64,000 bases of DNA, taken from positions 55,926,001-55,990,000 of the forward strand of contig NC_086097.1 of NCBI RefSeq assembly GCF_963921235.1, read 5' to 3'. Of this stretch, positions 6,028 to 59,214 are shown one piece after another. The notes below the pieces were generated by a model that did not search any database, was not told where the DNA came from, and saw only the letters and a list, made by a program, of their open reading frames with translations. Made by a program: the position numbers and the translations under genes. How positions within the stretch are numbered: the first letter of the stretch is position 1; the number at the start of each line of letters is the position of its first letter. The DNA is from Mobula hypostoma. Lineage: Eukaryota.

Positions 6028-6475
6028 TTGGATTTCCAGCATCTGCAGATTTTCTCTTGTTTGTGATTGGATTGCTACACTGCAAAGTCTCTTTAGGGAT
6101 GCCTACCCTGAAGAAGTTTAAATCTTCCCTTCAACAGAATTTCAGTGAAACCCTCTCTCACTGCTCCCCCTCTGATCTCTGCTGCTCTCCGAATCTTTGA
6201 CCCACTACCACAGCGATGATCTCTTTCACCAATCAACTTAAGCTTTTTACTTCACCCCTCCCCCCTCCTGGTTTCACCTTTACCTTGTGTTCTTCCTCCC
6301 CTCCTCCACCTTCTTACTCTGACTCCTCATCTCTTTTCTCCAGTCCTGAGGAAGGGTCTCGGCCCAACGTATCAACTGTACTCTTCTCCATAGATGCTGC
6401 CTGGCCTGATGAGTTTCTCCAGCATTTTGTGTGTGTTGCTTAGATTACCAGCTTCTGCAGATTTTCTCTTGTTTG
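6028..6475 (+). mobile_element. Penelope-like element remnant with directly repeated terminal segment
   Basis: GATTTCCAGCATCTGCAGATTTTCTCTTGTTTG near 6031 recurs as GATTACCAGCTTCTGCAGATTTTCTCTTGTTTG near 6443. The remnant also has a pyrimidine-rich body and a hammerhead-like motif at 6341-6378. Confidence 0.75.
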
Positions 6476-6834
6476 GAATTTTAGTCAGAAGGAACGGTTT
6501 AGTTGGTGGTGAGAAAAGTTAGCAAAGGATAGAATTTCCTCTGATGACTAGGTTTTAGTCTAATTTTGGAGAAGGTAGCAAAGTTGCAGATCATATGGAG
6601 GAAGAGGGAATCATTACTGGCAGTTTCTGGGTTGCAGAGTTTAACTGTGCATGTGCACATTACAGAAGTTTCTGGAAGCACCATGATACAATAATGAATA
6701 TTAAGAGCTTCACTATCATGCCAACCACACCATCCAAGCCAATATCCTTGAGCCACCTGAAACACTGCTGACTATTGGTGCAAATTACAGAAAAGGAATC
6801 GAGTACAATTTGAGTTATAAACATTACAAGCCAA

Positions 6835-7012
6835 CAACATAACTGTGGAGGCCAATTGACTGGATATATTTAAAATGGAGTTTAATATGTTCTTGACTGG
6901 TAAGGATGTCAAGAGTTCCAGGGAGAAGGCAGGAGAATGGGGTTGAGAGGATTCATGGCAGAGTAGACTTGATGGACCAAATTCTGCCCCAATGCAATAT
7001 GGTCTTACGTTC
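6835..7012 (+). mobile_element. CR1 LINE 3' fragment
   Basis: GTGGAGGCCAA...GGATATATTTAAAATGGAG...GGGAGAAGGCAGGAGAATGGGG...ATGGTCTTA is the same tail family as 62793-62956. Confidence 0.8.
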
Positions 7013-7486
7013 TGACATAATGCATAGACAGGCTTTTGAATGAGAGTAACAAAATAAATCAAATATAATCAGATATCCAGGTAAAAGCTTCTAGTTTAAG
7101 AGGACAGGTAAAGTGTAGGCTCAATGTAGACAGTGATATTCCATGCTGTCATCTTTCATCATCAGAGAAACCGGTAATATTTAACGTTGATGGGTTTCAA
7201 AATAGTTGACGATGGTATGTTGTTTGCAGCAAAGGTTTAAACTAAGAATATTGTAGACAATATTGCAATGCTTCCAATCATAATACCATTCGTCACTTAG
7301 GCTGAGGCATGATCATTGAAGTGCTTTCTAGATGGTCTTCTAGGCTAGAAAAAGACTAATGACAGATTGATTAAGTCAGCGTGAATCAATATCTTAGTAA
7401 ATGTAGCAGCTGCATTCTCTAAGCTAACATGTACCACATTCATGCTTGTGGAGACAGGTAGACAGAGCATTGACACAGATAAAATC

Positions 7487-8791
7487 TTTCTTTTTTCTTT
7501 TTCAATCTTTTTATTAGTTTCATAAAATATAAACATAACATAGCAATAATACAAAATTGTTGGAAATACATTGTTATACTTAAAATGAGTAATTATAAAA
7601 CCAAATAGTATGAATTGAGAAAATTCCCAATCATGTAGGATAACAATGAATAATACAGGACAAAAAAAAACTGGAGAAAAATCATGAAAAAGAAAAAAAA
7701 ATAGATAAAAAACAAACCCCACCCCAAAAAAAACTAAACTAAACAGAATTAGTCAACTAAACTAAAAGACTTGAGCAATTCTAACAACGTAAAAATGGAA
7801 GAGAAGAAAACCTTAGTGTCGACGACTCCATTCCTCTCAACCAACAGTACAGAGAAGTAAAATAAGTTTGGAAATGGTCAAATTACATCATATGAAAATG
7901 CTGAACAAATGGCCTCCAAGTTTTTTCAAATTTAATGGAGGGTCATAAACCACACTTCTACTTTTTTCCAAATTCAAACACAACATAGTTTGTGAAAATC
8001 AGTGAAATACAGTAGGAGGGTTAATCTCTTTCCAATTGATCAAAATGGAACTTTCCTTTTTCAACCTTCCACTATGGATCAAGCTTACTTTGTTTGGAAA
8101 ACCAAAGGTATAGTACGTTTTTGTAATTTATTTTTGGATAATTGTTTCATGTCTTTTGATCAACTTTCTAATAAATATAATTTACCCAGATCTCACTTTT
8201 TTAGATACCTACAGATTAGAAACTTTTTAATTACTGCTTCTCCTAATTTTCCACACCCATATCCAATGGATACTTTGGAAAAAATTTTAGATCTAAATCT
8301 CTTCAGAAAAGTGTTGTAGCAATTATTTATAACATAATTATGAACTTATGTCCTGATGTTTCCAATAAAATTAAAACTGATTGGGAAAGAGAACTTAAGA
8401 TTATTATACCAATTGAAAAATGGGAAAAAATTCTTCAATTGGTTAATTCATCCTCTATATGTGCTAAACATGTGTTGATACAATTTAAAGTAGTGCACAG
8501 GGCTCATATATCTAAAGATAAACTATCTCATTATTATTCTTATATTAATCCTATATGTGATAGATGTCATTCCAAGATAGCTTCTTTAACTCACATGTTT
8601 TGGTCATGTTCTTTGTTGGAAAAATATTGGAAAGATATTTTTGATATTATTTCAATGGTTTTGAATACAGACTTACAACCTGACCCAATTACTGCTATTT
8701 TTGGATTACCAATGATAGACTCAAATCATTCAACCTCTTCAGCACGCCGGATGATTGCATTTCTTACTTTAATGGCTAGAAGATCCATTTT
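7487..8791 (-). mobile_element. 5'-truncated, 5'-inverted L1-clade LINE
   Basis: 7487-8049 on the minus strand holds the ORF2 C-terminus (SILINWKEINPPTVFH), a 3'UTR, AATAAA (7510-7515) and an A-rich tail. 8050-8791 is upstream ORF2 on the plus strand with the zinc knuckle CDRC...HMFWSC. TSD ACAGATAAAATC lies at 7475-7486 and 8792-8803. Confidence 0.93.
8050..8791 (+). pseudogene. Inverted L1 ORF2 segment, post-RT region with zf-RVT-like motif, frameshifted
   Basis: ORFs 8002-8319 and 8340-8834 give FLFQPS...WKTKGI...HFFRYLQIRNF...LIQFKVVHRAH...CDRC...HMFWSC...MARRSI, typical of fish L1/Tx1-like ORF2. Confidence 0.88.
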
Positions 8792-8979
8792 ACAGATAAA
8801 ATCAACAATAAGTTTCATTATAGAACCTAACTAGGTATCAACCCATCACAGTTCATGAGCTGTGCTGGAGATCTGGAAAAGTCACCAAGCTGACTACGAC
8901 TGTAGACATGGCTGTTCTCCACGTTGATCCGCCAGGAGATAGCGAATAACATGTGGTAGTCATGCCAACAGGGGGCAGA

Positions 8980-9480
8980 AGTAAAGGTGTGCCAGGAGGA
9001 AGGATAAGCAGAGGAAGCTGAAATGAAATAAATTGTGAGAACATGAAGTACAAGACTGGAATGACTGATTATCTGAAATGCTGAATTTGGTGTTGAATCC
9101 TGAAGGCTGTAAGGTGCAAGTCAGATGTTCTGCTGTTCTTGCAGCTTCGTTGAAACAGCATAGGAGGTCGTTGTGCAAATGGGATGGAGAATTAAGTATC
9201 AAGATCAAAGTGGTGAACTGAACAGTATGTTCTGCAAAGCGGTCACAAGTTCATATTTTGGTTGCCCAAAGCAGAGGAGAGCACATCATGATCATCAGAA
9301 GCAGAAAGCCATATTGGAAGAGTTGAATGAAATACCTTCTTCATTTGGAATTAATATTTAGGTCCCTGGGTAATGGGAGGGAAGGAATTAAATGATAGTT
9401 ATCGCATCTCTTGCAGTTGGCGTGGAGGGCGCCACAAGTAGGGTGGTGAATTAGTGGAGATGGAAAAGTCAACCCGAATA
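8980..9480 (-). mobile_element. Old Penelope-like fragment, GIY-YIG region
   Basis: Colinear by eye with the better preserved copy at 57770-58170. The minus strand reads HLTCTLQPSGFNTKFS, resembling the Penelope C-terminal LGxLQPxGxNxxFS. Confidence 0.6.
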
Positions 9481-10817: not shown

Positions 10818-11055
10818 AGAGCTGTCCAGCTCTTGGCTCCATCCCTCCCCCTCCTGTCTTCTCCTATCATTTTGGATCTCCCCCTCCCCCTCCCACTTTC
10901 AAATCTCTTCTTTCAGTTAGGCCTGACAAAGAGTCTCAACCTGAAATGTCGACCGTACCTCTTCCGAAAGATGCTGCCTGGCCTGCTGCGTTCACCAGTA
11001 ACTTTGATGTGTGTTGCTTGAATTTCCAGCATCTGCAGATTTCCTCGTGTTTGCG
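10818..11055 (+). mobile_element. Penelope-like 3' terminal repeat
   Basis: A pyrimidine-rich body followed by CTGACAAAGAGTCTCAACCTGAAATGTCGAC...GATGCTGCCTGGCCTGCTG...TTTCCAGCATCTGCAGA. Confidence 0.8.
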
Positions 11056-11249
11056 TTTTTTAAAATAAAATTATCCTGTGTTGCAAAAAATAGAAGGCTT
11101 CATCGAATATGGTGAACAGAGCCCATGAGTACATTCCACTGTTAAGTTATGCAGATTAGAAGGGCGAGACATTGTTTGGACCCAACATGACTTCCTACTG
11201 TGACTGGTGATGGTGAGACACGCCTCGTTAAAACTTTTATGCATGTATG

Positions 11250-13414: not shown

Positions 13415-13585
13415 AATGCAGATACATCAAATCTAAAATAAAGATGGAAAATACTGTATTTGTGGAGACAGAATCAGAACTCTCATTTCAGGTTAATGAT
13501 ATAAAATGTTAATTCTATTCCTTTCTCCATGGCCGCTGCCTGACTTGTTGAGTATCTCCATGAATGTTCTGTTTTTTCGTTTGTT
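13415..13585. mobile_element. Old back-to-back Penelope-derived terminal repeats
   Basis: Minus-oriented TGCAGATACATCAAATCTAAAATAAAGATGGAAAATACTG is followed by plus-oriented CTGCCTGACTTGTTGAGTATCTCCA...TTCTGTTTTT. Confidence 0.5.
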
Positions 13586-17717: not shown

Positions 17718-18271
17718 CATCAGGCTGATCATCTGGTACAGAAGCCTGAAGTCCTACACCACCAGGTTCAAAGGCAACTACTTCCCATCAGCCATTCTGT
17801 TCTTGAACGAACAGGCAAAACCCTGATCACTACTGTTTAGCAAACCTATGAACACTTCCATCACCTTGCGCAAAAATTCCTTGTTCTAATTGTTTTCTTT
17901 CCTGTAACAAATTGTGTACAATGCAGTGTACATTTATAATTTTCCTGTGGATCCTGTTCATATGATATTATGTCCCTGTGATGCTGCTGCAAGATTTTCA
18001 TTGCAAAAGTGCAAACATGAGTGGCACGGTAGCATAGTGGTTAGCACAACGCCTTACAGTCCAGACAGCCTGGGTTCAATTCCCACCACTGCCCATACGA
18101 TCTCCCCATGACCACATGGGTTTCCTCCCACAGTATAAAGACGTACCAGTGGTAGGTTAACCAATCATTGCAAATTTTATATTGGGATATTGCTGGGAAG
18201 CATGGCCTTAAAGGGCTGGATTCTCTGTATTCGCAGTAGATAAATAAATATGCTTGTGTATATGACAATAA
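17718..18271 (+). mobile_element. Rex1/Babar-type LINE 3' end, interrupted; tail finishes at 19778-19800
   Basis: GGTACAGAAGCCTGAAGTCCTACACCACCAGGTTCAAAGGCAACTACTTCCC reads YRSLKSYTTRFKGNYFP, matching YRSLRTRTTRFRNSYYP at 50269-50466. The 3'UTR runs TGTGATGCTGCTGCAAG...TATGACAATAA. Confidence 0.8.
18020..18245 (+). mobile_element. V-domain tRNA SINE inserted in the Rex1 3'UTR
   Basis: GTGGCACGGTAGCATAGTGGTTAGC head, GGTTCAATTCCC B box and TAAATAAATA tail. Probable TSD AAACATG (18013-18019) / AAATATG (18246-18252). Confidence 0.85.
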
Positions 18272-18952: not shown

Positions 18953-19286
18953 CAGTGGTCCCCAACCTCTGGGCCGCGGACCGATACATTGCCTGAAGAA
19001 TGCAGCGGTGCAGCGGTGGCCGGAACGCACACCTTTAAGAAAAAAGCTGGAAATAAACAAGCTAATTAATTAGGTGCTGCCGGCACGTGAATGTCGGCCC
19101 AGATCAAAGGCGATTGCCGATCGCGTCGCCTTTGATCTGGGCCAACATTTACGTGCCGGGTGGAACCTAATTAATTAGCTTGTTTATTTCAGCTTTTTTC
19201 TTAAAGATGTGCTGGGTGCATCCCAGCCACCGCTGCATTCTTCGTGGCAATGTATTGGTCCGTGGCCCGAAGGTTGGGGACCACTG
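18953..19286. mobile_element. Palindromic hAT MITE (334 bp) nested in the Buster element
   Basis: TIRs CAGTGGTCCCCAACC / GGTTGGGGACCACTG. Perfect TSD TTATAATT at 18945-18952 and 19287-19294. The arms are complementary almost to the centre near 19120. Confidence 0.95.
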
Positions 19287-20084
19287 TTATAATTGACATA
19301 TCACTATATTCATGCGAGGAAAATATGCGCTGCGTATTTAATATTAAATTCGTTAGATAAACCCTTTTAGAAACGAAATTGAGTGTATTAGCCACTTATA
19401 AGTGACTTGTAGTTGACTTATCACCTATATTCCGGTCATGATTAACACACCTCCCCCACCCCCTCCCCCGTTGGCCGGTCCGCAAGTATATAGTCAATAT
19501 TAAACTGGTCCGCGGTGCAAAAAAGGTTGGGGACCCCTGGCATAGTGGCATTAGTGCCAGACTTGGGGATGAAAGGTCTCAAGTTCGAATCCAGCTGGCT
19601 CCCCATCTGTGCCGGGTTACGAGCTGGTCATCTTTTTGGAAACTCACCCGGCAGAAGGCAATAGCAAGCCACTGCTGTAACTTGCCTCGTACGCGGTTCC
19701 CCACTACATCAGAGAGGCGTGGAGGTAAATCATCCGCTAACCAGAGAAACTCCGTATGTGACTTACCTTTCCTTTCCTATATGACAATAAATTTGACTTT
19801 TCAATTTTAATATATTCATAATAAGCCAATATATTTCTCGGATCATTCAAACACTCAACTGTTTCCATCCCCTCCTTACTGCACTGTTTTATTTGTATGC
19901 TTTGTTGTCACTCTTTTGCTTCCTCTCTCCAGTGACACCTGAACCATGAGGGGTGCAGCTTTGGCAAGTCAATGGCAAATTCAAGGAGCCACCCTTATGC
20001 ACTGTCAGAAATATACATTTATCATGACCAGAAACAAATAAAACAGCAAAGAACGGGGGGAGGTAGGTGATAGAAAAGCATATT

Positions 20085-20222
20085 CTTTCTAGTCCAAATA
20101 AAGAGTGTTGCCCTGAAACTCTGACCATCCATTTCCTGCCGTAGAAGCTGCCTGACACATTGGGTTCCTCCAATATTTTGTGTGTTGCTCTAGATTCAGG
20201 CATCAGCAGTCTTGTGTCTCCA
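20085..20222 (+). mobile_element. Degenerate Penelope-like terminal repeat
   Basis: CCCTGAAACTCTGACC...AGAAGCTGCCTGACACATTGGGTTCCTCCAATATTTTGTGTGTTGCTCTAGATT. Confidence 0.7.
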
Positions 20223-24712: not shown

Positions 24713-24997
24713 CTAAATGTATCTCAGATAAAATACAATGGGGTAGAAATCCTTTCATACAAAGATATACTGTGTGGGCTTTCTGCCCCAGTTCATTATA
24801 CGGCATGAATTTGCCATATTCACCAGTGATGTTCAAAAGAATATCAATGGAGCAAGAGTTGTTGACTTGAAATGTGAACTGGCATTTCTTTCCTGGGATC
24901 TGCTAGATTTCCAGTATTTTCTGGTTTTGTGCTCAATAGAATTGACAAATCCTCACGCACAAATCTACATGGGACAGTCTTCATAAACACGAAAAGT

Positions 24998-25118
24998 TCT
25001 GCACATGCTGAGAATCCAAAGCAACACACACAAAATGCTGGAGGAACTCAGTAGATCAGGCAGCATCAATGAAAATGAATAAGTCAATGTTTCAGGCCGG
25101 CAGCCTTTTTCAGGGCTT
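24998..25118 (-). mobile_element. Penelope-like terminal repeat with degenerate hammerhead
   Basis: GCAACACACACAAAATGCTGGAGGAACTCAG...CAGGCAGCATC. The minus strand of 25081-25118 is AAGCC-CTGAAAA-AGGCTGCCGGCCT-GAAA-CATT-GACTT. Confidence 0.85.
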
Positions 25119-25419
25119 ATAGGTCTTCTCCTGTTCGGCTGTGAATTGAGAGAGAATATTTCAGAAACTTTTAATCTATTAAAGAGAAGAGAAATCTTGG
25201 GGATGGAGAGGTTAAGAGGGCATGGGAGAGAATGGGGGTGGAGATGGGGAGGACTGGAATGGGTTAAGGAGAATGATGGAGAGGTTGGCGAGAGGTTCCA
25301 AGGTGCTGGGGAGGAGACCATGAGATAGTTGGTGTCAGGGAGATGATTAAGGCCTGGGTAGAGAAGATTGGTGCTAGAGAGATCATTGTAGAGGGAAGGG
25401 TGTTGAAGATGGGTAAATA

Positions 25420-25592
25420 AATAAAACTGCAGGTGCTGGAATCCAAAACAAAAACAACTACTGTAAGAACTCAGTCAGTCCAAACTGAGGAACAGTGGAG
25501 AGTTAAACATATTTGTATTGTGGTACTCTGTAAACTCTCCATTTGTCCCTCAGTTCTGAGGAAGGGTCATTGATCTGCAACACCAACTGGTC
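25420..25592. mobile_element. Older back-to-back Penelope-derived termini with a plus-strand hammerhead relic
   Basis: Minus-oriented AACTGCAGGTGCTGGAATCC...AGAACTCAG, then CAGTT-CTGAGGA-AGGGTCATTGATCT-GCAA-CACC-AACTG at 25551-25589. Confidence 0.6.
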
Positions 25593-29679: not shown

Positions 29680-32561
29680 CTGTGGATTCTGGTTAATTGG
29701 GAAACGTCGAAACCAATACATTTTGGCCCAATTAAGCGGCTACACCAATTGGCTGAAGTTTCATGGAAGTAGTTACAAAGGTATAAAAAAGACAAACTAC
29801 CATTTAACTGAGTAACAAATTATGAATTTAAATGAAATACAAAACAAATTAGAACACTACCAATACTATTATAGTACTATAAAACTGTGTATTAGTTCCT
29901 AAAATTTATTGATGGAGGAATTCACCCATTGTATGCAGCCCTGTTCTTTTGATTGATTGTAAGTGAACAAAATCAGTGCAGATAATGGACTGCCTTTATA
30001 CAATGCTTTCAAAATCAGGATCAGAATTAAGTTTAATATCACCGGCATATGTTGTGAAACTTGTTGTTTTGCGGCAGCAGTATATTGCAATACATAATGA
30101 TAAAGCTATAATTAACAATAAGAAGTACATACTGTATACTTCTACATATTTTGTTAAATATATATATAATTAATTTAAATATGTAGTGCAAAAAGAAAGA
30201 TAAAAAAATACTGAGGTAGTGTTGATGTGTCATTGTCCATTCAGAAATCTGATGGTGGAGAGGAAGATGTTGTTCCTTAAACCCCGAGTGTGTGTCTTCA
30301 GGCTCCTGTACCTCCTCCTTCATGGAAGCAACGAGAAGGGGGCATGTTCTGTATGATGAGGGTCATTAATGATAGATGGCATCACGTTTTGAAGGTGTCC
30401 TGGATGCAGGGGAGGCTGGTGCCCATGACGACGCTGGCTGAGTTTACTGCTTTCTGCAACTTTTTCTGACCCTGTGCAGTGGCCCCTCCACACCAAATGA
30501 TGATACAACAAATTAGAATGCTGGACATCCATAGAAATTTGTGGGTGTCATTGGAGACATACCAATTTCCCTCAAACTCCTAATAAAATTTAGCTGCCTT
30601 TGTGCCTTCTTTGTAATTGCATCAAGATGTTGGGCCCAGGATAGATCCTCAGAGAAGTTGGCACCCAGGAACTTGAAACTGCTCACCCGTTCAACTTCAG
30701 ATCCCCCAATGAGGACTGGTGTCTGTCTCTCAACTTCCCCTCCCTGAAGTCCACAATCAATTCCTTGGTCTTACTGACATTGAGTGCAAGGTTGTTGCTA
30801 TGGCACCACTCAACCAACTGATCTATCTTGCTCCTATACTGTATGCCTCCTCATCACCATCTGAACAATACTTGTGTTGTCAGCAAATTTATAGATGGTG
30901 TTTGAGCTGTGCCTAAATGCACAGTGGTGAGTGTAGGGAGAGTACAGCATTGGGCATCCTTGAGGTGTGCCACTGTTATTGTTAGCAGGAAGGAGATGCT
31001 ATTTCCAATCTGTACAGACTATGGTCTCCTGGTCAGGAAGTCTAGGATCTAGTTGAAGAGGCAGGTACAGAGACACAGTTTTAGGAGCTTGTTGATCTGA
31101 AGGTATGCTGGTGTTGAACTCTAAGCTGTAATCAATAACCAGCAGGCTGATGTAGGTATTACTATTGCCCAGGTGATCCAAGGCCAAGTGGAGAGCCAGT
31201 GAGATTGCACCCCCTGTAGACCTATTGTGGCGATAGGCAAATTGCAGTGGATCCAGGTCCTTGTTTAGGCCAAAGTTGATATTAGACATGAACAACCTCT
31301 CAAAGCACTTCATCGTAGTAGATGTCAATGCCACTGGACAATAGTCATTGAGGCAGCTCACCCTGCACTGATATGCTTGTCGCCCTTTTGGAGCAGGTGG
31401 GAACTTCCGACTCCAACGGTGAGAGATTGAAGATGACTTTGAACATTTCCACCAATTGGTGGCATGGGTTTTCAGAATCCTACCAGGTACACAATCAAGG
31501 CCTGACGCCTTGCGAGGATTTACTCTCTTGAAAGATGTTCTGATGTCAGCCTCCGAGACTGAAATCACAGAGTCACCAGATGCCGCAGGGATTTGCACAG
31601 GTGTAGTTTTATTCTCCCTTTATAAATGTGCATGAAAGGTGTTGATCACACCTGGGAGTGAAGCATCACAGCCATTCATCATCTTAGCTTTGGCTTTGTA
31701 GGAAGTAATGGCCTGTAAACGGACAGGCATCCGATTCCATCTCTAACCTCAATCAGAGTTTTTTTTTCACCTTTAAAATAACCTTTTATTGGTCATACCT
31801 GGACTTCTTGTATAGTTACGGATCACTGGTGTTGAATGCCACATATCTAACCCTCAGCAGATTACAAATCTCCTGGTTCATCCATGGCTTTTGGTTTGTG
31901 TATGCTCTCAAAGACACATACTCATGTACACAGGTCTTGATGAAGTTGGTAATTCATTCAGACTCGAAGATGGATCTCTGAATATTGTCCAGTTCACTGG
32001 ATCAAAGCAGTCCTAGAAGCACTCCTCCGCTTCCCTTGACTATACCTTCTTAGTCCTCACCATTGGTGCTGCAGTCTTTAATTTCTGCCTATATGCTGGG
32101 AGTATTGCATTGCATGCCATTGCATCCTCCAAATATTCATTTTCATTGTATCATTCAAGATGATTGATGATACCTTTAAATTCCTCTTGGTTCCTTACAC
32201 GTTCTGGCCATTTCTGGCATCTTCAATCCTAAATGCTTCAAACCCCAGTGAGTAAAACAGTTCTGAATTGTCTTACTACTTATTTCTCAACAACTATCAG
32301 TGACAAAAATCATTGCTTTTTGAACACACACACACACAATTGATGCTATTTAAAAAGTATTTGCTCTAGGTACAGCATGGCCACAAAAATGCATACAACT
32401 AATGCTAGTTAGAAACTGTTCGACAAGTCTCCTGTCCCAATTCTCCCTAATAAACAAAGGGAATCCCAGCTATTTTCTCAATTAGGTTTCACTTTTTAAG
32501 AGTTGTTCCAAATAAGCAGCTGCCCCAATTAATCAATGGCCCTATTAACTGGAATTCACTG
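29680..32561 (-). mobile_element. pogo/Tigger-like non-autonomous element interrupted by a Rex1 LINE
   Basis: TA-flanked termini CTGTGGATTCTGGTTAATTGGG and CCCTATTAACTGGAATTCACTG are imperfect inverted repeats. The minus strand near 32235-32315 reads AMIFVTDSC*EISSKTIQNCFTHWG, resembling the Tigger TIxNCFxxxG motif. Confidence 0.78.
30013..32104 (-). mobile_element. Rex1/Babar-clade LINE, 5'-truncated, decayed RT
   Basis: ORF 30999-31598 reads VNPRKASGLDCVPGRILK...CLNDYCPVALTSTTMKCFERL...LDPLQFAYRHNRST. The 3' tail AATCAGGATCAGAATT lies at 30013. Confidence 0.92.
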
Positions 32562-33540: not shown

Positions 33541-33675
33541 GGCCCGATGAAGGGTCTTGGCCTGAAATATCGATTCTTCATTCCTTTCAACAGATGCTGC
33601 CTGACCTGCTGAGTTCCTCCAGCATTTTGCATGTGTCACTCTGGTTTCCAGCTTCTGCAGAATCTTTTGTGTTTA
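33541..33675 (+). mobile_element. Penelope-like terminal repeat with near-intact hammerhead core
   Basis: CCGATGA-AGGGTCTTGGCCT-GAAA-TATC-GATT followed by AGATGCTGCCTGACCTGCTGAGTTCCTCCAGCATTTTG. Confidence 0.85.
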
Positions 33676-34179
33676 TTCCCGCCCAAGGTGCAGTTCCTCA
33701 TGTAAGAGTATAGAGAGCCTGATCTAATTTAACTATCCAAAATTGACAGGAAAACCTGTCATGGCACTCATTCTGGATCTATACACTTCCAGCCTCATTA
33801 TTATTGATAGTGGACTGCTTCCCCTTTCACAGTACCTAGTGCTGAACCACTAGGTTTTATCTGATATTATTTATGTGTTTTCAGCTGCATTGTTTTACTT
33901 AATTTAGATTTTAAAACATTATTAATGCAGTTAAATATTACATATCTTTGAGAGTGCTGGAAACCCCCACCCTGCTCACTAGAATTTATTTTTTTGCAAC
34001 ATACAAGAAACTATATCAGCATCGATGTGTTATTGTCACCTGAGTTTTTATAGAAAGGTCATCTCTGCTAATCCCCAGGCCTGCCTGAATATGGGAAGGG
34101 TTTAAATCCAGTATGCTTGATCTGGGATCCCTCATAGTTCCCTCACTGAGCTATACAATTTAATTGAGACTCAGAGTGC

Positions 34180-34470
34180 CTTTGACCTCTTCATTTTCTT
34201 AACATGGCCAGGCTGTTACTCAGTCCTCCAGTCTGTCCTAGCAAGCATTGGCAGGCGCTTGAACCACAATGGGCGCCAAAGCCAAATCCAAGCCATTTCC
34301 AGCCAATACCCACATGTCTGTATTTTCTAACAGGAGTTTGTGGATAGCAACCAAGTGCAGAAATTTTGGCCAATTTTAATCTATCTAAACTCAGAATATC
34401 AATGCCAATTTTAGCACCCTGGCTAAGATACCCAACTCAATTCAAACTGCTGGTTAGGTTTGGCTCCTCC
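34180..34470 (-). mobile_element. Possible ancient chondrichthyan tRNA SINE relic
   Basis: GCCAAAGCCAAATCC...GGATAGCAACCAAG...GCCAATTTTAGCACCCTGGCTAAGATACCCAACTCA resembles, from memory, the reverse complement of an old shark SINE. A possible plus-strand relative lies at 58400-58560. Confidence 0.4.
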
Positions 34471-37229
34471 GTCTTCAATGGCCTGTTCACTCCAAAGCAT
34501 TTTAAATGTTCCTGGAACTTTTGATGTTGAGACAATTTCTTACATAGTGCAAAAACATTTTGTAAATGAACAAGGCAGGAGTTTCCAGCACACTCAAAGC
34601 TATATTATATTTAACTACAATAATTATGTTTTAATCCAGATTAGGAAAAATATTGCAGCTGTAAACACTTATGATCTTGTCAGAAGCATTGCTTATTACC
34701 AGCTGTTGGATGCAGTCATAAAGTACCAGCTTTACAGTTATGAAAAAATGTGGATATTGTAATAATTATTAAACCAGTGTGGATTGCTATCTCGGTGTCC
34801 GTCTTTCTAAATGGTAATGTGGTATCAGCAGCTGCAGACGACCGTTGATTTCCCTATTAGTAAACAAGTGCTTTGGAGACCTGTGTGAGACACTTTAAGC
34901 CCACTACTCCCCGAAGTGCTGTCAAGCTTAACTACTAATCCATGGTATTTTAGAGCACTGGAAATTCATCTTTATAAAACCCTAACAAAAAAGGAAGAAG
35001 CCTGGAGGGCATGAGCTCCCTCTGGTGAGACAAATGACATGTTCATTTATTAATGAAACAATAACCCTGGAAGGAGGATCAAAGCATGTCCCGTCCTCAC
35101 TTTACAACCTCCAATTTTCTAAGGCCAAACTATTTAATTGAACCACGACAATGAAATATTTAATTGTTACCATTAAATAAAATTTCAGGTAAGGTACGGG
35201 GAACAAGAAATGTGTCTAATGCAAATGAACAGGATGTTAGTGACTATTTCACAAACAGCATGTGACCAAAGGACAAAACTGTTTTAATTATGGCAATGAA
35301 TGCATAATTGTTGTGTTTATTAGGAAAATCTCATAAGGCAGTAGTTTTGATTTTTCTGTTCTATTTACAGCATCTTAATTACTTTTTGATTACTTTGCAT
35401 ATAAAAGCATGTTGCAAATTGGCACAGACTCTGTTTTAAATATTTAGCAATGAGTTATTTGTTGTACTGCTCTGTGTTATCAAAATGTACGATACTGTAT
35501 GTGTTGAGGCACATTATCATTTATGCATATTGGCTGGCTTATGTACCATGAAGTCAGATCTGACTAACACACTTGACAACATCGCAGGCAAAACTGACTT
35601 GCAGGCCCTAATATGTTGACAGAATGAAATAGTGATTAGTGTATTTTATGATTCATTAATTTGTTTTTTTGCATATTGACTTTCTTCCAATTTGCTCCAG
35701 AAGCTACCTACTTTAAAGAAATATCTTTAAATAAATAGATAACTATCAGAATCATTGTGCAGATTGGCTGTATAGACAGATTGATTAATCACTAAGGGCT
35801 GAAATATTCATTAATTACAACACCTTATGCAAATCCTAATGGAGATATTGCCATGTCTTTTTAAAGTTGCCTGAGAAATTCCATGCTACATGAAATAACT
35901 AGAAACCAAAAACAACTCATTTTATAACCAGCTAAACTTCCATTTAAGTAATTAAAATAATGCCCCATGCAATGTTAGAGTGATTGGAACTTCCCTCTTG
36001 GGAAATGGTGTGATATAATATTTAATCTTTTGTCACTGTATAGACTCCCTTTGCATCAATTGCAGTATAATTCACATTGCCCGGCCTTTTATTTTACCAT
36101 TGGAGTTGATTGGACAGTGTGTAGCATTTTAAATCCTGGGTGGTTTGCTGGGTATAATAGCAATCTCTATGAATATGATTCAGTTTAGTGTAGGTGCCTT
36201 TTGTCTGCATTAATCTGCAAAGGTATCTTTCTAGAATTCTGTAAATGCATTTTATCAATGCATGTCACATTTTCCATTCTTTCATCTCAAACATTTAATT
36301 TAGCATCCAGTCATGCTGGTAATCCTATGTCATGACACTCTCTATTCACCTCTGATTCAGTGCTGACAACAGCTTCTTATAAAGATAAAAATAGGTGAAG
36401 GGTATTATAAAGAAAGAAGGATCCAGCTATGCTGTGAGACCTCAACTCCTGGCAACATCTTTGGTCCCTCAGGTTTCTTTATACTAATTCAGCAAATTAT
36501 TAAGTTAAATAATAAGTCAACTGACAATATTATGATTTAAAGTTTGTATCAACTGGGACCCTGCCTTATTGTTTCTAATCTATAATTCCTCACACTGCAG
36601 GGGGAGTTTTAACTCCTGAGCGGAACATTTATGTCGACACTGCTGGCCTAGGTGTAGCACCGGCAGGCATTGGAAACAGAAAAGCAGATGCAGTTCTGGC
36701 CACTGAGGGAATCAGGTGGCAGCCAGTCAGGCTGGCATTGGAGGGATCTGAAGGATGGGCTGGGAGGCTGTAGTTACTTCCTCTTCACCCTCATTGGAAA
36801 ACCACTGGCACCTCGACTTCTGGTGATTGAAACAATGGACACATATTGAGTGCACTACTGAAGCATAAATTGAAGGGACAGGTCCGTGACAGGTGCTGGA
36901 ACCCCAGTTTACAAAAAAAGCTGCAGGTTTTCTCAGAAATTGAACAATTATGAAGACAATGTGACAATTATGATATGGTTGCATTTCCACTGGATTTTCC
37001 AGTTAATATTACAATTTTTAAATTTTTATTTGGTGCTTAGTTTTATTTAAGTAGCACTGAAATAGGAAATTAGTGATGATCTTATTGATTGGCCCACCAG
37101 TCACAAAGATCACAATGGCTTATTTCTGCTTCTATTACCTGTTGATAATGATTACATCTGTCTTCTGATGGCAGGACAAGATATCTAGATTTCTTTAACT
37201 TTTTTATTTTACACTACGTACCATTCAGA

Positions 37230-38762: not shown

Positions 38763-39154
38763 TATTGCTGGTATAATTATTTGTCAAAATAAATATATAT
38801 CCCATCACACGCATTGAGTTACACAAGCTTAGATTTTATGTATTTAGCTTAGAAGTTAAGTCCATAAATGAATCAATAATCCATTATATGTTATTTTGAA
38901 AATCTTAATGAAGAAAATGTAATATTTTTATAAGCTTATTGAAAGAGATTTGCACAAACTCATACCTGAGCATGCAGCCAAGGGTAGAAAAGTTTCAAAG
39001 TTGGGTTTGACCAAGTCAAAAGTATGAAATCAGCAAGTATGAATTAAACTTTTAGTTTTTTGATCTCTTCTTACAGGCACCTGAGCTTAATGGAATAATG
39101 AGACACAATCATGGTTATATTGGCAGCATTATATAACCAAGACAATGGCAGTTT

Positions 39155-39350
39155 GAAATAAAACCAGAAACTTCTGAGAACACTCAGCAGTCAGACATTT
39201 GTGAAGGAGAAGATTTTGTGATTTAGGTTGAAGACCCTTTGTTGAACTCTTTGACCTGAAAATATTAATTGTTTCCCTTTTCACAGATGATGATTGGCCT
39301 GTTAAATACTTCCAGCATTTTCTGCTTTTGTTTGAGTTTCACAGCATTAG
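39155..39350. mobile_element. Old back-to-back Penelope-derived terminal repeats
   Basis: AAACCAGAAACTTCTGAGAACACTCAGCAGTCAG (minus-oriented) followed by TTTCACAGATGATGATTGGCCTGTTAAATACTTCCAGCATTTTCTG (plus-oriented). Confidence 0.55.
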
Positions 39351-39869: not shown

Positions 39870-40660
39870 TCACATCTTTAATCTTTGCTAATCACCCCCC
39901 ACTAATGGATTTTATATTTTTCTATTTACCATGGGCAGCCTCTGTCTCATGGTATTGAAGCCTGCCTTATCCAAACCTAAATGCTGAATACTGCGCCAAG
40001 TTGTTCTCTTTCAAAAGATCCAGGTAATCACCATGAGGTAACTTCAGGTAATGTTGGCTTGTTAACAACATCTAAGTCTAACATGGTCTCTTTCTTGTAA
40101 AGTCTCCACTTTGTAGCAGGGATCGCTGGCATATGTTGCTTATTGCCTTTCAATATAATATGGTTGCTGTTCTTCATTATCAACCCTGATATTTGTTATA
40201 CAATGTCCAGTAAACCTCTCACACTATAATTAAATTATTCTGGCTTTATGGCATCCTAATGTACTCATTAATTGCAATGTGATATGCTAACAAAGGGATT
40301 TCTCATATACTATACAAATATAGGAGAAACTAGACAAATATGCATAAAGGAAGAATGATTTAAATTTAGCTTTTTATCTTTCAAATAAACCTATTACTTC
40401 ATCTGAAAGGTAGTGAATTTCTTGGCTAGTGAAGTATCTGAAAACCATGAAAGAAAGATCATGTTAGACAGATGTTGTTAACAAGCCAACATTTCATGAA
40501 GTTATCTCGTGATGATTATCTGGATCTTCTGAAAGAGAACAATTTGATGCAGTATTCAAGCTCTTCGATATGGATAAGGCAGGTTTCACTATCTAAGATG
40601 GAGCCTGTCTGTGGTGAACAGACCAATGGGACATAACTAGCAAAGAATACAAATGTGGTA
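39870..40660. repeat. Long imperfect inverted duplication, arms about 39870-40095 and 40451-40660
   Basis: TGTTGGCTTGTTAACAACATCT pairs with AGATGTTGTTAACAAGCCAACA, CCTGCCTTATCCA with TGGATAAGGCAGG, and TTGTTCTCTTTCA with TGAAAGAGAACAA. Confidence 0.92.
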
Positions 40661-42810
40661 CAGAACTAATTTTAAGAAATAAGGACTTTACTTGCCAAAA
40701 AACATGGATGCATGGATGACAGGAAAATAATAAGTGATAAAATAAAAGGGTTCATACAGAAGTACACAATATAGCACCCTGGTGACTGGGAGAGGTTCAA
40801 AAACCAAATGGATAGAAAACAAATAACAAGTGATATAAGACGGCAAAGAGGTTTTCAAGAGATAACAAAATCAATGCAATATTTCTTAAAGGTGATCAGC
40901 AGCAATTTGGGGCCCTTCACAACTGATAAATTGTTAAAAAAATGATACAGTAGTCATATTGAATCATTATTTCCAGAAAAGAAAGGGGATAGACATCAAT
41001 GGGGGCTAGTGTTGAATCGAGACTGAAGAAAATGATGGCAATAAGATTGAAAAATGTTGAGAGTTAGCTTTTCCATTCAGGATTTTAAAGGACGTAGGTG
41101 AGAACTCTGCAAAAGCTGGACAAAAAAAAACAATCCACCAATATTCTCTACACTTGGAAGAGAGAGCTGGCAAGGAAAAGTAGGTCATCTCTGTAAAACT
41201 TGATTGCATTTTACAAAGAGGTTATCTGTAATAATGGATGTGGACACAAAATATCACGTTTGGAGGCAAAGTGCCAAATATTGACACAGCTAAATTGTGT
41301 ATTTATTTTCATATCTGAGGATCAATTTCTCGGCGTTAGCTAAAGTTGAACCCCTGAAAATGAAACCAACCAAATGACTGATTTAGAAGACTGCCCGAGA
41401 GGTAAGAAATAAAAGATTAGGGATGATGGGTAGATACTCAAAGACCCAAATTGCACAACATGATTGAAAACTAAACAAGTTCAGACCTTTTCTTCTTCAT
41501 TCTAGAACTTGAGTCTCTGAGGCACTTGTCACTATTAGAAGTCTTGCAATGTACCAGTGGACAGCAAGCTCATTCTCCAAGGATAGCTTCCCACAAATAT
41601 AATGTCCAGAAGGTCAAGAGATAGTGTGGATCGATTCCTTAATAGCTTATTCCCTTGACCTCTGAATGACCAACTTTACCAGGTCCATGAGCTGGGATGT
41701 CCTTGGTCCTGGACTCAAAACTTTTCATGATCGATGAGCAACACAAAGAACAGGGTCCATTCTGAATGAAAAAGACAAGTTTAATTTTTTGATGAAGGGT
41801 CTCAGCCTCAAATGTCAACTGTTTACTGTTTTCCATAGATGCTGCCTGGCCTGCTGAGTTCCTCCAGTATTTCATGTGTATTGCTTGGATTTCCAGCATC
41901 TGCAGATTTTCTCTTGTTTATTTTTCTATTGTCTTGTGCAATCAATATTTTTAAATTAGCAAAAATATGATTTTACTTTCTTTATCAATGACCTGGAATA
42001 AGGAATACAAAGTCACATATCCAAGTTTATCGACGAAAAGGAAATAGGGAACATTGTGAACTGTGAGATATTACTAGATTACAGTGAATACATTTGTAAA
42101 AAGGATTTCAGTGCCATCACTGGGACATCATCCTTCATGGACATAAACAGGGACAAGCAGGATATTACCCCATTGCAAAAAGCCAGAAATGGGGGGAGGT
42201 TTAAAGACATTTTGTCCATGAGCGCAGATCATTAATTTGTCATAATTGTTATGAAACTAATCAAAAAGACCATTGAAAAGCTAGCCCTTGTATCTATAGT
42301 TTAGCAAGGATGCAAAGATGGAGGTGAAAGAGGTAAAGATTCATGTTATTGCTGCACAAACCCTTGGTTATACCTGGACTACTGTAAGTAGTTCTAGGCA
42401 TCATATCATAGCTTGTCTATATTGCCCCTACAAGAAATCCCAATTAAAGGTACTCAAATAAAGCTTGGTCTCCAAGGATCATGAGTGAAATTATACAAAT
42501 TTGGGTTATATATTCCCTGCTTTTTAAGAGCTTGATGGATAATTTTGTTCAAGGGGATCTGACAGAGTTAAATATAGAGAACATATTTCCATTGGTTGAT
42601 GCCTTTGAAGTCAGTGTTTGAAACTCTTTTCTGTAAATGACAAGTTACACCAAGTTAATTTTATACCAGAACTGAAAACTTTTCATTACCCAAATGTATT
42701 AAGAGATGTGAGATAAAAGTAGGCAATGGAATTAGGTCACAGATTTGCTATGAATTCATTGAATGGTGGACTAGAGTCAAAAGGCTAGGCAGATTATTCT
42801 TCTCTTTCTC
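40400..42810 (+). mobile_element. Very old, fragmented CR1 ORF2 relic
   Basis: Patchy matches: TGACCTGGAATAAGGAATACAAAGTCACATATCCAAGTTT (the DL...SKF region of RT), CCCTTGGTTATACCTGGACTACTG, and the tail GAATGGTGGACTAGAGTCAAAAGGCT. Confidence 0.5.
41789..41920 (+). mobile_element. Penelope-like terminal repeat with degenerate hammerhead
   Basis: TTGATGA-AGGGTCTCAGCCT-CAAA-TGTC-AACTG...ATAGATGCTGCCTGGCCTGCTGAGTTCCTCCAG...GGATTTCCAGCATCTGCAGATTTTCTCTTGTTT. Confidence 0.87.
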
Positions 42811-49469: not shown

Positions 49470-49720
49470 TTTTTTAAATTTAGAGATACAGTAGCATAAC
49501 AGGTCCTTCCAGCTCAACAAGCCCATGTTGTCCGATTACGCCTATTCAATGAATTAACCTGTATGTCTTTGCAACCTGGGAGGAAATCGGAGCATCTGGA
49601 GGAAACTCATACGGTCAAGTGGAGAACGTACAAACTGTTTACAGACAGTGGCAGGAATTGAACCCCTGTTGCTGCCGCTATAAAGCATTACACTAACCAC
49701 TGCGCTATCGTGCCACCCCA
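49470..49720 (-). mobile_element. V-domain tRNA SINE
   Basis: GGGAGGAAATCGGAGCATCTGGAGGAAACTCA...GGAATTGAACC...CTAACCACTGCGCTATCGTGCCACCCC is the reverse complement of the SINE head and core. Confidence 0.87.
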
Positions 49721-55030: not shown

Positions 55031-56378
55031 GGTCTCATTCAAGCACTCCAGGATTTGAGGGAACTTCCTTGCTCTTCTAAAGGGTACTGTTTTTTTATAT
55101 CTACATATGACAGGAAATAAGATCTTGATTTACACTCTTAGATCCAATATGATTTATAAAATAAGCAAGCATTTCACATTCCAAATGGTAAACTGCTTTC
55201 AATTGGCCTGACAATGAGTCTTTTACAGCAAATACAGGTTAAAAATCTCCCCAGTTGTTAAGTTATATTGATATTTTGAGATGCAAATGAGTTTTTTGAT
55301 TATAATGCTAGTATTGCCAGAAGTATGAACAGAGGTAATACATTTCATCTCAGGCTAATCGATAGTTATATTGTGGAAACACATTACTCACTAATGTACT
55401 TATGAATACACCTTGTTCATATTGTTTGCTTTGCAAAGTTGAGAATCAATAGCAAAGTCCAGCATAAAAATACACACAATCATTCCAAAATCACAATTAC
55501 AAGCTGAACATTTTGTTCACATATTTTACCTGCTGTTGAGTGAACTGGTGGCTCACTCAAGCTAACAAGTACATGCCAATAAAGGTCATCTTGGCAGCTA
55601 TAGTTATATGGCGGCTTGAGGTCTATAAACAGCCGCCTTTATCTATTATTGTTTTCATCTTTAGTACTTTGCCTCTGGAATAATGTGGTAAGAAAAGAGC
55701 TCTTGCATTGACTCTCCATTTTACAATATAGATATCACAGCAAAATAGTTGTCTCAAGTGCTGACACTGGAAAACAAATCACAACAAGCATAGGTATAAC
55801 AGTTTTATGGGATATGGGATATGGGATATCCGATTTTCTGAAAGGAAAAAAGTTATTGGACTTTCCCTGATGGTGAAAGATTGCTATTGAGAAGTTAACA
55901 TTATGTTACAAAATAGGTGTAATTTTGGAATGTTATGGTTGAATAGATATACAGAGGACATTAACAAGATTACAATAAGAAAATATATTCATAAGCATTT
56001 GCTAACTAGTTATATGTACATTGTTTAAAATTAAAAGGATTAATTGAAACACGCCATCAAATTAATTATAAACTGAATATTTAATAAAGTCTTTATTTTT
56101 TGTTAATGTGCTAGCATTTTCAAAATATGCTTTATATTCTTTGGCACATTTAATATATCTATGCATTTCCTACTTTCCTAAGTATTACATAACTGAGATA
56201 TTTATTGTCAAATCTAGATACTTATTGAAGTGATTGCAGGATATTCATGGATAAAAGTAATTTGGCTAGGCAGTGTCAGTGCATGTTTGATAATGCAAGC
56301 TGCAAATCTCTGAATTTATCCTGGTGTTTAGCCACTGTAGCGATATAGTATGAAGCAACTAGGTGGAGGGGGTGGATA

Positions 56379-56565
56379 TTCACGCAGTGGCCATTTTGTT
56401 AGGTACTCCTGTATAATTGCTCGTTAATGCCAATATCTAAACAGCCAATCACGTGGCAGAAACTCAGTGCATTAAAGCATTCAGACATGGTCAAGAGATC
56501 AGTTGTTGTTTACATCAAACTTCAAAATGGGAAAACAATGTGATCTAGGTGACTTTGACCATTGG
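56379..56565 (+). mobile_element. Truncated copy of the Tc1 family seen at 1670
   Basis: CACGCAGTGGCCATTTTGTTAGGTAC start, MGKQCDLGDFDH, colinear with 1670-1835. Confidence 0.85.
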
Positions 56566-57449
56566 GCCAGAAGGGGAGGTTGGGGACAAACGTGGGAAAA
56601 TGGGATTAAGTATCTTGGTTGGAATGGACCAGGTGAGCCAAAAAGGACAAGTTGTTTCTGTGCTGAAAGGCTGTTAGCTTCCAAGGGGGTGGGGGCACTG
56701 GGGTTGGAGAGGGAGAGAGAGAAAAGGACAAGGTAAGGGAGAGGGAGAGAGAAAGTGACTAGCAAACGGTCTGATTAAGTGGTATAATAAATAACATCTC
56801 AAACGTAAGACAATTTGTGGATAGAGGTCAATGTAAGAATGTGTATTTTGTAAGCACAATTTAATTTAAAGCTATCATCCAATATACAGAAATATTCTCA
56901 TCCAAATTTTCATTTACTAATTCACAGCACATACATGTGAACTGAAGGAAAAGGCAGTTGAAAAAATATAAAATAATTGCAATGGTCTGTCATTTGAGGT
57001 AATGTTCTAATCCTAATATTGTTATTACTCATGTCTGCATTTATTTCAGATTTATTCATATACTGGAAATGCATCAAGAGTGTTTCAATTGTTGGTGTTT
57101 ATGTTACAACACATATTTAGCATTTCACACAAAAGGCTTTGCATTTTTCATCGAAAGATTACAAAATCACTGAACACAATGGAACTTTAATGAGATTTCA
57201 GCTTTATAACACTCATTTAATTTGATGCTGGCAAAATAAATATCTGTTTCAACATAATTTTAGACATTCCTCCATTAAAAACTTCTGAAGATTTGACTTT
57301 GTAAAGTAATTAAATCTAAAGTATGAGTAGAAGATGGAACTGATACCAGTTAAATATTGTTTTTAAGTCCCCACGAGCTGATCAACTCAAAACTGTTCCA
57401 AAATGATCTCTTCAATGTCCTTTATAAAAATCATGGGACAATCTTTCAT

Positions 57450-58172
57450 GGTGGAAGTACATGGTGGAAGGTGATAGGTGATGAGGGAATGGGAGGACGA
57501 AGTACATGGTGGAAGGTGATAGGTGATGAGGGGAGGGGAGTGGAGGAAGAAGTACATGGTGGCAGGTGAACAGTGAGACTGGGAAAAAGGCAGGGGGTGA
57601 AGTAAAAAGTTGGGAAGTTTGTTAGTGAAAGAGATAAAGTGCTGGAGAAGCTGGTATCTGATAGGAGAGGGTAGAAGACCATGAAGAAAGGGAAGGAGAA
57701 GGTCTTGGACAGGTAAGGAGATAAGGTGAGAGAGGGAAACAGGAATGGGGATTAGTGAAGGGGGGGGGCAATTACCAGATGTTCGAGAAATCGATGTTCA
57801 TGCTATCAGATTGGAGGCTACCCAGACGGAATATTCGGTGTGGCTCCTCCGAATTGAGTGTGGCCTCATTGTGGCAGTAGAGAAGGCCACAGACTGACAT
57901 GTCAGAATGGGAATGGGAAGTGGAATTAAAATGGGGCTACAGGGAGATCCCATTTTTCTTGTGGATGGAGTATAGGTGCCTGGCAAAGCAGTGTCCCAAT
58001 CTACGTTGGGTCTCACCGATATACAGGAGGCCAGACCGGGAACACTGGATACAGTAGATGACCCCACAGACTCGCAAGTGAAGTATCACCTCACCTGGAA
58101 GGTCTGTTTGGTGCACTGAATGGAAGTGAGGGAGGAGGTGTGGGGGCAGGTGTGGCACTTGTAGTGAGGGAG
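57450..58172 (-). mobile_element. Penelope-like element, GIY-YIG endonuclease and 3' region
   Basis: GVIYCIQCSRSGLLYIGETQRRLGHCFARHL matches the Penelope GIY-YIG motif (VIYxIxCxxCxxxYIGET). Confidence 0.92.
57454..57575 (+). repeat. Tandem triplication of about 45-50 bp in the Penelope 3' region
   Basis: GAAGTACATGGTGG(A/C)AGGTGA starts at 57454, 57499 and 57549. Confidence 0.9.
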
Positions 58173-58173
58173 G

Positions 58174-58393
58174 AACATAGAACATAGAAATCTGCAGCGC
58201 ATTACAGGCCCTTCGGCGCACAATGTTGTGCCGACCATGTACCCTACTCTAGAAACTGCCTAGAATTTCTCTACTGTATAGCCCTCTAATTTCCTAAGCT
58301 CTATGTAGCTATCTAAGAGTTTCTTAAAAGACCCTATTGTATCTGCCTCTACCACCTTTGCTGGCAGTGCATTCCATTCACCCACCACTCTCT
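58174..58393 (-). mobile_element. CR1 LINE 3' tail
   Basis: (AACATAG)n terminal repeat, CAGGCCCTTCGGCGCACAATG and GGCAGTGCATTCCA..CACCCACCACTCTCTG. Confidence 0.88.
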
Positions 58394-58779
58394 GGAGGAG
58401 CTGCTCCATTTTTAATTCCAGTTCTGTGCTAAATTTTGTTCATCCCAGCTATGGAGTTTCCCATGTGTCCTTATCTCTGTGATAAGCTGGGGCTAAAATC
58501 AAGGCTCTCACTCCTGATAATATAATACTATTCCAACCCTGACCATGCATAGTATAAAAGTCAAATAAGGGCAATGTAGAAGTTAACCACGAAGCTGCCC
58601 ATGATAAAATAGTTCACTGACCCTTCTTGTTTAGGCCCCATATGAAGGATGGCTATTTGCTCAGAGAACCAGTGCAGGTCAGTGCCATTGGGCAGACAAA
58701 TGGAAGATATTTATTTTAATTATAATATTTTTACCACATCTACATTGTATGTAAAATTTTATTACCAAAATTAGTTCAT

Positions 58780-59076
58780 GGGGTGGTATAGTGGTGTAGT
58801 AGTTAGCGTAACACTTTACACCACTGACAATAAAAGTGCGATTCTTGCCGCTGTCTCCATGGTAACTGTATAGTCTCTGGTTTCCGCTCGCATTCCAAAG
58901 GTGTACGGGTTAGTGTTAGCCAGTTGGGAACAGTCTATGCTGGCGCCAGAAGCATGGCAACACTTGTGGGCAGCCCCCAGCACATCCTTGGACTGTGTTG
59001 TTCATCGACGCAAGCGATGCATTTCACTGTACGTTTCGATCTTTCGATGTACATGTGAAAACTAAAACTAATCTTT
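58780..59076 (+). mobile_element. tRNA SINE with V-like core and an alternative LINE-type tail
   Basis: Head GTGGTATAGTGGTGTAGTAGTTAGCG, core CTCTGGTTTCC...CATTCCAAAG and tail GCATTTCACTGTACGTTTCGA...TGTACATGTGA...CTAATCTT. Confidence 0.75.
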
Positions 59077-59089
59077 AGTTCCATTTAAT

Positions 59090-59214
59090 AGAAAATCTGC
59101 AGATGCTGCAAGTCCAGAGCCACACACACAAAATGCTGGAGGAACTCAGGAGGTCAGGCAGCATCTGTGGAAAAGCGTACACAGTTGACGTTTCGGGCCA
59201 CGGCCCTTCAGCAG
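59090..59214 (-). mobile_element. Penelope-like terminal repeat with the best preserved hammerhead core
   Basis: Minus strand CTGCTGA-AGGGCCGTGGCCC-GAAA-CGTC-AACTG, then AGATGCTGCCTGACCTCCTGAGTTCCTCCAGCATTTTGTGTGTG. Confidence 0.88.

Follow-up and report, generated by a model that had tools for sequence, protein, structure and literature searches.

The 64,000-nt stretch of the Mobula hypostoma genome analysed here (contig NC_086097.1, positions 55,926,001 to 55,990,000; the window) contains dispersed copies of the end of a Penelope-like element (PLE) whose pseudo-long terminal repeats (pLTRs) carry a minimal type I hammerhead ribozyme motif. It was considered likely that insertions of this element derive mostly from RNA left uncut by the ribozyme, and that the many short copies, or stubs, were formed when reverse transcription ran off an RNA end located at helix I.

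The Full-Length Element

A first-pass annotation of the window had taken the repeat for the ribozyme-bearing terminus of a PLE. This identification is supported by the position of the motif behind a frame encoding reverse transcriptase (RT), a linker and GIY-YIG, and by its intact recurrence in both direct pLTRs. Loci with an intact core extended upstream into such a frame, with RT, cysteine-linker and GIY-YIG motifs, and the hammerhead lay approximately 230–300 nt downstream of it.

Sixteen loci were fetched for long open frames. In four of them (L171, L172, L173 and L179), the hammerhead was present in two direct repeats about 3.5 kb apart and 99% identical, and three of these four kept an open frame of 1,043 aa, with 1,028 aa identical between copies. 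The full-length unit comprises 3,514 nt; it has a single frame for RT and GIY-YIG, and each of its pLTRs bears an intact minimal type I hammerhead. The direct pLTRs measured 451–1,331 nt, and a probable start codon was located about 140 nt past the predicted cut.

The 1,043-aa frame contains the motifs DKG, LPKIHK and YIDD and a CxxxxxCxxC linker, which places the CX2-5CxxC linker between RT and the endonuclease (EN) at aa 910–918. Pfam returned RVT_1 (E = 3.8e-5) and GIY-YIG (E = 0.001), both below the curated cut-offs. A total of 1,243 homologues were found, with RT domains in nearly all of 120 among the matches listed; the closest named homologue among these was from Chiloscyllium punctatum (72%), and no solved structure of a relative was found. 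The CxxxxxCxxC linker is described as a mark of Neptune or Nematis in the part of PMC8557442 that was available. By its features the element was assigned as a probable Neptune-type EN+ PLE, an assignment that leaves Nematis, which also bears the linker, formally in play.

A pyrimidine tract and AG, situated just before and inside helix I (L171, 3140–3180), resemble a 3' splice site such as that of Drosophila Penelope. Among the contigs searched, no spliced junction at the helix I AG was found.

Abundance and Conservation of the Motif

The layout shared by the window copies, expressed as a 29-nt consensus, gave 7,925 exact matches in the 3.48-Gb genome and none for the reversed control, while the bare intact core gave 102,054 matches compared with 292 for its control. 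With about 100,000 intact cores in the genome, the reconstruction of the ribozyme from damaged copies that had been proposed is unnecessary. A profile search detected 118 copies in 60 position-picked 10-kb stretches (600 kb), corresponding to approximately 200 termini per Mb, and the copy total extrapolates to several hundred thousand.

The motif consists of helix I of 4–5 bp, CUGANGA, an extra A, helix II of 4 bp with a 4-nt loop, GAAA, a palindromic ACGU without loop III, and C17. Positions were numbered from the predicted cut after GUC, +1 being the first base after it and C3 lying at −28. In 54 unbiased copies, the hammerhead base was the majority at every core position. The variable sites in this sample were CpG positions, N7, A6, 11.1 and sites in the tail, and the subfamilies differed at the free N7, at A6, at 11.1 and outside the motif. 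The variation within families was therefore attributed to decay, mostly at CpG.

The palindromic ACGU and the extra A after A9 were present in all families examined; the search patterns fixed ACGU, whereas the unbiased sample did not. The core, the two stems and the palindrome were retained in families of every age (ancient, old and young), while the flanking tail changed. Any cutting of RNA by the motif is predicted to be weak and to require either a dimer or the help of a protein.

In a further subfamily (L120, L117 and L147) the stems were the same, but the triplet was GUU and the helix II loop differed. A second family with an AGCU palindrome was sought and was unsupported (47 matches compared with 52 in the control), although a handful of the matches share the stem II of the present family. 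Five of these 47, namely L417 (1500–1533) and four similar matches, represent another hammerhead-like repeat, in which GAAA is followed by GCUA and the spacer is longer.

Start and End Points of Inserted Copies

Junctions were examined in 200 young copies, chosen by an anchor at +9..+38 and blind to the hammerhead (the first 100 matches to either of two patterns). The 3' ends clustered in two places downstream of the predicted cut, at about 65 and 102 nt, with 101 copies ending at +55..+76 and 89 at +95..+114, which is the tail signature of PLEs. At the 5' junction, an inverted partner was present in 70 copies.

The 5' ends of 40 copies (10 of the first 60 and 30 of the next 140) fell at −28..−36, the 5' edge of helix I, which corresponds to 0.028 per nt compared with 0.002–0.011 in the neighbouring bins. 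Only 4 of the 200 started at +1, the predicted cut, two of them non-inverted and with a duplication. As many copies begin at the front edge of the motif and not at the predicted cut, they were likely copied from uncut RNA.

The peak was also seen when inverted junctions were set aside, with 16 of 130 non-inverted copies starting at −28..−36, or 16 of the 49 whose 5' end lies from +9 to −90 (binomial P = 4e-6, for a window picked after the data had been seen). Nine of these 16 had a duplication of 5–15 nt, seven had flanks that are colinear in another repeat, and 11 had at least one of the two. Splicing of host or element exons onto the helix I AG was ruled out as the source of the peak, because the duplications and colinear flanks abut the junction and no captured exon was present. 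Older copies showed the same pattern: 11 of 30 A6C copies had no more than 8 nt upstream of C3 in common with any other copy, as did 20 of 30 ancient copies, a figure weakened by divergence.

The main rival explanation accepts the same element and motif but regards the 5'-end peak as structural, with reverse transcription stalling, folding back or being trimmed at helix I or at an upstream hairpin. For the youngest family, the peak falls on the loop of a hairpin predicted upstream, 24 of the 40 copies in the peak are inverted junctions (stem I microhomology being present in many), the ends are spread over about 9 nt rather than placed at one base, and self-priming at palindromic junctions has been argued for (PMC3846280). 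However, the peak persists in the non-inverted, duplication-flanked copies and in older families, in which the hairpin is no better than in shuffled sequence. Structural stops of reverse transcription are, moreover, expected on the 3' side of a helix, which was counted against this explanation. We regard it as somewhat unlikely.

A different proposal is that cleaved RNA regularly serves as a template and has left a fossil record in the copies that start at the cut. In an extra search restricted to copies ending near the predicted cut (1,966 matches), +1 was the commonest start, found in 21 of 100 among the matches listed when read by eye and in 8 of 30 by script; the two non-inverted copies starting at +1 and bordered by target-site duplications (TSDs) point in the same direction. 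Six of the eight scripted starts, on the other hand, were inverted junctions, mostly ambiguous through stem I/II microhomology, and one was a deletion, while +1 starts were rare in the unbiased sample of 200. The near-cut starts were taken as weak evidence for occasional use of cut RNA, and its regular use appears improbable.

At G000:C1:69869166-69869219, a perfect fold-back pair was noted by eye in which a start at the predicted cut would fit both arms; being a palindrome, it is ambiguous.

It was also considered whether the short copies form an independent non-autonomous family, a short interspersed nuclear element (SINE) or retrozyme with master copies of its own. Many stubs are of near-equal length and carry TSDs, and retrozymes, proposed to be pLTR-derived, occur in one chondrichthyan according to the available part of a preprint (bioRxiv 10.64898/2026.07.22.740005). 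The stubs, however, carry the diagnostic bases of the full-length elements of each subfamily, their variable 5' ends grade into long copies, and no tandem array was present in the window. A separate family of this kind seems very unlikely.

The preferred reading, insertion mostly from uncut RNA with run-off at helix I, would proceed as follows. The element protein would nick DNA and start reverse transcription at two internal sites, as it does in vitro for the PLE of an anole, using as template mostly RNA left uncut by the ribozyme. In many stubs of 95–135 nt, reverse transcription would run off the 5' end of an RNA likely starting at helix I. Cleavage may come later or only occasionally, freeing unit-length RNA, possibly for circles, and would be dispensable for each insertion. 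The bases of the −28..−36 start region fit an initiator consensus. An internal pLTR promoter is described for Penelope in the part of PMC2377424 that was available.

Stem Variation

Compensatory changes in stem I, and changes in stem II that keep its pairing, had been put forward for the window copies, a claim that was overstated, as the variation among them is mostly neutral decay, mainly at CpG. In stem I, CAGTT/AACTG at 25551 reflects a real change at the family level, whereas AAGCC/GACTT at 25081 contains a C-A mismatch. In stem II, GGGC/GCCC at 59195 keeps its pairing, though through a one-sided change; AGGC/GCCT at 25093 pairs only after a register shift of one base and has a C-C mismatch in register.

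An ancient family with a 14-nt spacer was supported by 82 matches compared with 6 in the control. U was found at 2.1 in 23 of 30 of its copies selected for A1.1, and C at 2.1 in 28 of 30 copies of the main family. Its helix II has 5 bp, with mostly U-A where the others have U-G. U-A at 2.1-1.1 within the main family was rejected as a compensatory change, most of the 100 of 351 matches listed looking like double decay; only the family with the 14-nt spacer represents a real change.

In an alignment of 66 distinct rows, 77.8% of the cells were paired, compared with 19–46% for slid controls. The covariation test on these rows gave a divided answer: the pair 2.1-1.1 covaried (C-G in 23 rows and U-A in 23), but the number of covarying pairs was not above that in shuffles (112 of 500). 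A single, apparently compensatory change of a pair from C-G to U-A sets an ancient family apart.

Core Variants and Predicted Folding

The A6C variant of the core gave 509 genome matches and A6U only 65, and A6C occurred in old-type tails. This excess within old-type tails indicates that a sub-lineage with the A6C core has spread, and the window copy at 59182 belongs to it. As far as the available parts of PMC3088659 and PMC7151607 go, A6C is a known natural variant of low activity, with a rate below 0.1 per min in a phage hammerhead (PMC3088659).

These variants bear on the possibility that the hammerhead is now vestigial or only weakly constrained in this lineage, being carried along in the pLTR with its cleavage dispensable. 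Such a state would agree with the amplification of a core variant of low activity in the phage hammerhead, with the G10.1-U11.1 pair of the youngest copies, with the small number of copies starting at the predicted cut, and with hammerhead mutants that had no effect on insertion in vitro in the available part of PMC11167929. It is at odds with the retention of core, stems and palindrome across families whose tails changed, and with changes that keep the pairing. On balance we consider it quite unlikely.

When the RNA was started at −33, intact young copies were predicted to form helices I and II with pair probabilities of 0.74–0.99. With 40 more upstream bases, a hairpin engaging the core was predicted for the youngest type (0.89; 0 of 60 shuffles, in two loci). 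The masking hairpin was weak in two more loci, and 9 of the 13 loci tested gave nothing beyond composition. A conserved masking hairpin was thus rejected as a general feature, being clear only in the youngest type.

An RNA start exactly at helix I could act as a switch, in which the upstream strand of read-through RNA would mask the core and keep the RNA whole for copying, while RNA started at helix I, being without this strand, could fold and cut. This remains a speculative and, in our estimation, unlikely extension of the proposed mechanism.

Several results weigh against the preferred reading of a hammerhead-bearing PLE copied mostly from uncut RNA. The position 10.1-11.1 was G-C in 9 and G-U in 21 of 30 loci with intact cores, and the youngest full-length copies seen were all G10.1-U11.1 instead of the conserved G-C. 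In the monomer fold of the young family, the core GACG pairs with CGUC, and the minimum of the cofold was not the ACGU dimer, a duplex worth only −1.7 kcal/mol; thermodynamic support for the dimer was sought by folding and not found. Rfam hammerhead models matched neither the window (E ≤ 5) nor an intact copy (E ≤ 10), as expected for a motif without helix III.

The covariation amounts to one pair and one family-level event, in a family partly selected on its A1.1. The 200 young copies were all drawn from the initial 8.7 Mb of a single contig, and each inverted pair adds two copies to the count (36 loci for the 40 peak copies). Finally, the 5' pLTRs of full-length copies reach 350–1,230 nt upstream of the predicted cut, which RNA starting at helix I alone cannot explain; such long pLTRs would need read-through, template jumps or circles.

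Copies and Other Features of the Window

The seven copies recognized in the first-pass annotation (6341, 10918, 25081, 25551, 33541, 41789 and 59182) are all present, and the statement that every one has a mutated core was borne out, each having at least one defect. G8A is shared by 10918 and 25081; 33541 has U4C, 41789 has C3U and G12C, and 59182 has A6C and lacks the stem I 5' arm. In 6341 the G12 region and the palindrome are damaged, and in 25551 the GAAA box and the palindrome. The repeat unit in the window measures about 145 nt, and further copies were found at 13497, 20082 and 39241/39252, together with fragments at 6025 and 25476 (Table 1).

A profile was seeded with six of the seven copies, and 10 shuffled windows served as control. 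The six seeds scored 130–144 bits on their own profile, by construction and hence without value as a test. Unseeded matches were 20082+ (55 bits), 6025+ (30), 39252+ (26), 13502+ (22), 25476− (13) and 25546+ (8.8), whereas the best score per shuffled window was 3.7–7.4 bits. With a shuffled maximum of 7.4 against 8.8 bits, the copy at 25551 is only marginal on this profile; its sequence agrees with that of a separate, ancient family.

Of the six best window copies, four are stubs like those described above. The window copies are, overall, 5'-truncated and mutated 3' ends, dead and drifting neutrally. Three degraded window open reading frames (ORFs) had no Pfam match and were identified only against the natural full-length frame. 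The segment 6024–6478 consists of an ORF-start piece (6024–6173) followed by a 3' end of the same family, and represents either an internally deleted element or two insertions.

Table 1. PLE-derived features of the window (UTR, untranslated region).
Feature	Position	Strand	Score
PLE 5' UTR tail and ORF start (52 aa of the frame, 62% identical), directly upstream of the 6250 copy	6024..6202	+	
PLE 3' end comprising some 95 nt of 3' UTR, a decayed hammerhead (6341-6378) and the tail	6250..6478	+	
PLE 3' end, younger tail type; hammerhead 10918-10955, G8A	10822..11058	+	
Ancient, heavily decayed copy	13497..13563	+	
Decayed hammerhead and tail; overlooked in the first-pass annotation	20082..20216	+	
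Short hammerhead and tail insertion, G8A; 6-nt flanking duplication (by eye)	24983..25122	-	
Tail fragment; inverted partner region of the 25551 copy	25423..25476	-	13 bits
Decayed ancient-family hammerhead, U2.1-A1.1, 14-nt spacer	25546..25592	+	
Short hammerhead and tail insertion, start at helix I edge; U4C	33541..33676	+	
Inverted pair of ancient copies, head to head (39241- and 39252+); approximate lower bound	39150..39347	.	
Short hammerhead and tail insertion, start approximately at core; C3U, G12C	41789..41921	+	
PLE linker and GIY-YIG C-terminus (aa 914-1042 of L171 frame, 68-73% identical)	57778..58162	-	
Short hammerhead and tail insertion, A6C sub-lineage; predicted cut between 59187 and 59186	59080..59214	-	
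PLE RT fragment (aa 517-672, 49% identical)	60226..60660	-	
Second PLE RT fragment (aa 596-647), opposite strand	60822..60968	+	

Other repeats were also noted. Nested inverted repeats at 18953–19286, with 41-nt outer arms and a long internal palindrome (19041–19199), are probably a miniature inverted-repeat transposable element (MITE), with hAT-like ends. Two MITE-like elements lie at 39985–40558 and 33911–34634 (inverted arms of 89 and 68 nt, respectively). A dispersed repeat with a tRNA-like head, presumably a SINE, occurs at 3279–3427, 18028–18097, 49561–49716 and 58790–58859.

A 180-aa frame at 62052–62594 contains a GDSL/SGNH esterase domain (E = 1.5e-9), a domain that occurs in ORF1 of some long interspersed nuclear elements (LINEs). 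LINE fragments were found at 8247–8834 and 30999–31619, with a zf-RVT match (E = 2e-4) and an RT-like frame, respectively, and a tandem repeat with a 76-nt unit (3.1 copies, 93% matches) at 4806–5043.

Relation to Known Systems

The comparisons that follow extend as far as the available parts of the cited papers. Cervera and De la Pena (2014, PMC4209133) described minimal hammerheads, weakly active as dimers, in the pLTRs of metazoan PLEs, including Neptune, Poseidon and Xena elements of fishes. The motif class is thus already known for Neptune PLEs of fishes, and the present family is a further example.

The shared features are the CUGANGA / GAAA / UH core, helix I of 4–5 bp, the extra base between A9 and 10.1, the palindromic 15.2-16.2 without loop III, the presence in both pLTRs, and the predominance of solitary copies from truncated elements, with nearby copies on opposite strands. 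Differences from that description are the helix II of only 4 bp (5 in the ancient family), the G10.1-U11.1 of the youngest copies and the amplified A6C sub-lineage. Intact cores number about 100,000 here, compared with about 4,000 in the coelacanth and 9,000 in Xenopus tropicalis in the same paper, where the descriptors differ.

With EN+ PLEs of the Neptune clade (Craig et al. 2021, PMC8557442), the element shares a single frame of RT and C-terminal GIY-YIG with a zinc-finger-like linker, partial tandem pLTRs, an inverted 5'-truncated partner and an optional tail of 30–40 bp. Its two 3' ends resemble those of PAc, the Anolis carolinensis PLE of the Poseidon type (Frangieh et al. 2024, PMC11167929), where they match two internal RT starts. 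Uncut RNA is the main template of PAc, as would be the case here, and protein-assisted hammerhead cleavage is described in the same paper. PAc belongs to a different clade, however, and its ORF starts inside the hammerhead instead of past the cut; a 5'-end peak at helix I, observed here, is not reported for PAc in the available part of that paper.

Non-LTR retrozymes (Li et al. 2026 bioRxiv) are likewise pLTR-derived, carry a type I hammerhead and are present in one sampled chondrichthyan. They form tandem arrays, whereas dispersed stubs and inverted pairs of an autonomous family were found here; in the window, which was the only region examined in this respect, there was no tandem array of hammerhead-bearing units. 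Beyond Li et al. 2026, no literature on this family in cartilaginous fishes was found, though the supplements of Cervera 2014 and Li 2026, Repbase or Dfam may list it.

In this class, hammerhead activity is low in vitro and, by the available part of PMC11167929, was dispensable in the one reconstituted system. The genome of M. hypostoma offers a very large and still young family with countable junctions; going by these counts, most templates appear to have been uncut and many RNAs to start at helix I. Of the approximately 200 termini per Mb, some have intact cores that could affect host transcripts. If the RNA start at helix I does act as a switch, tens of thousands of stubs would show where RNA with a vertebrate PLE ribozyme begins in vivo and, for a small fraction of them, where it is cut.

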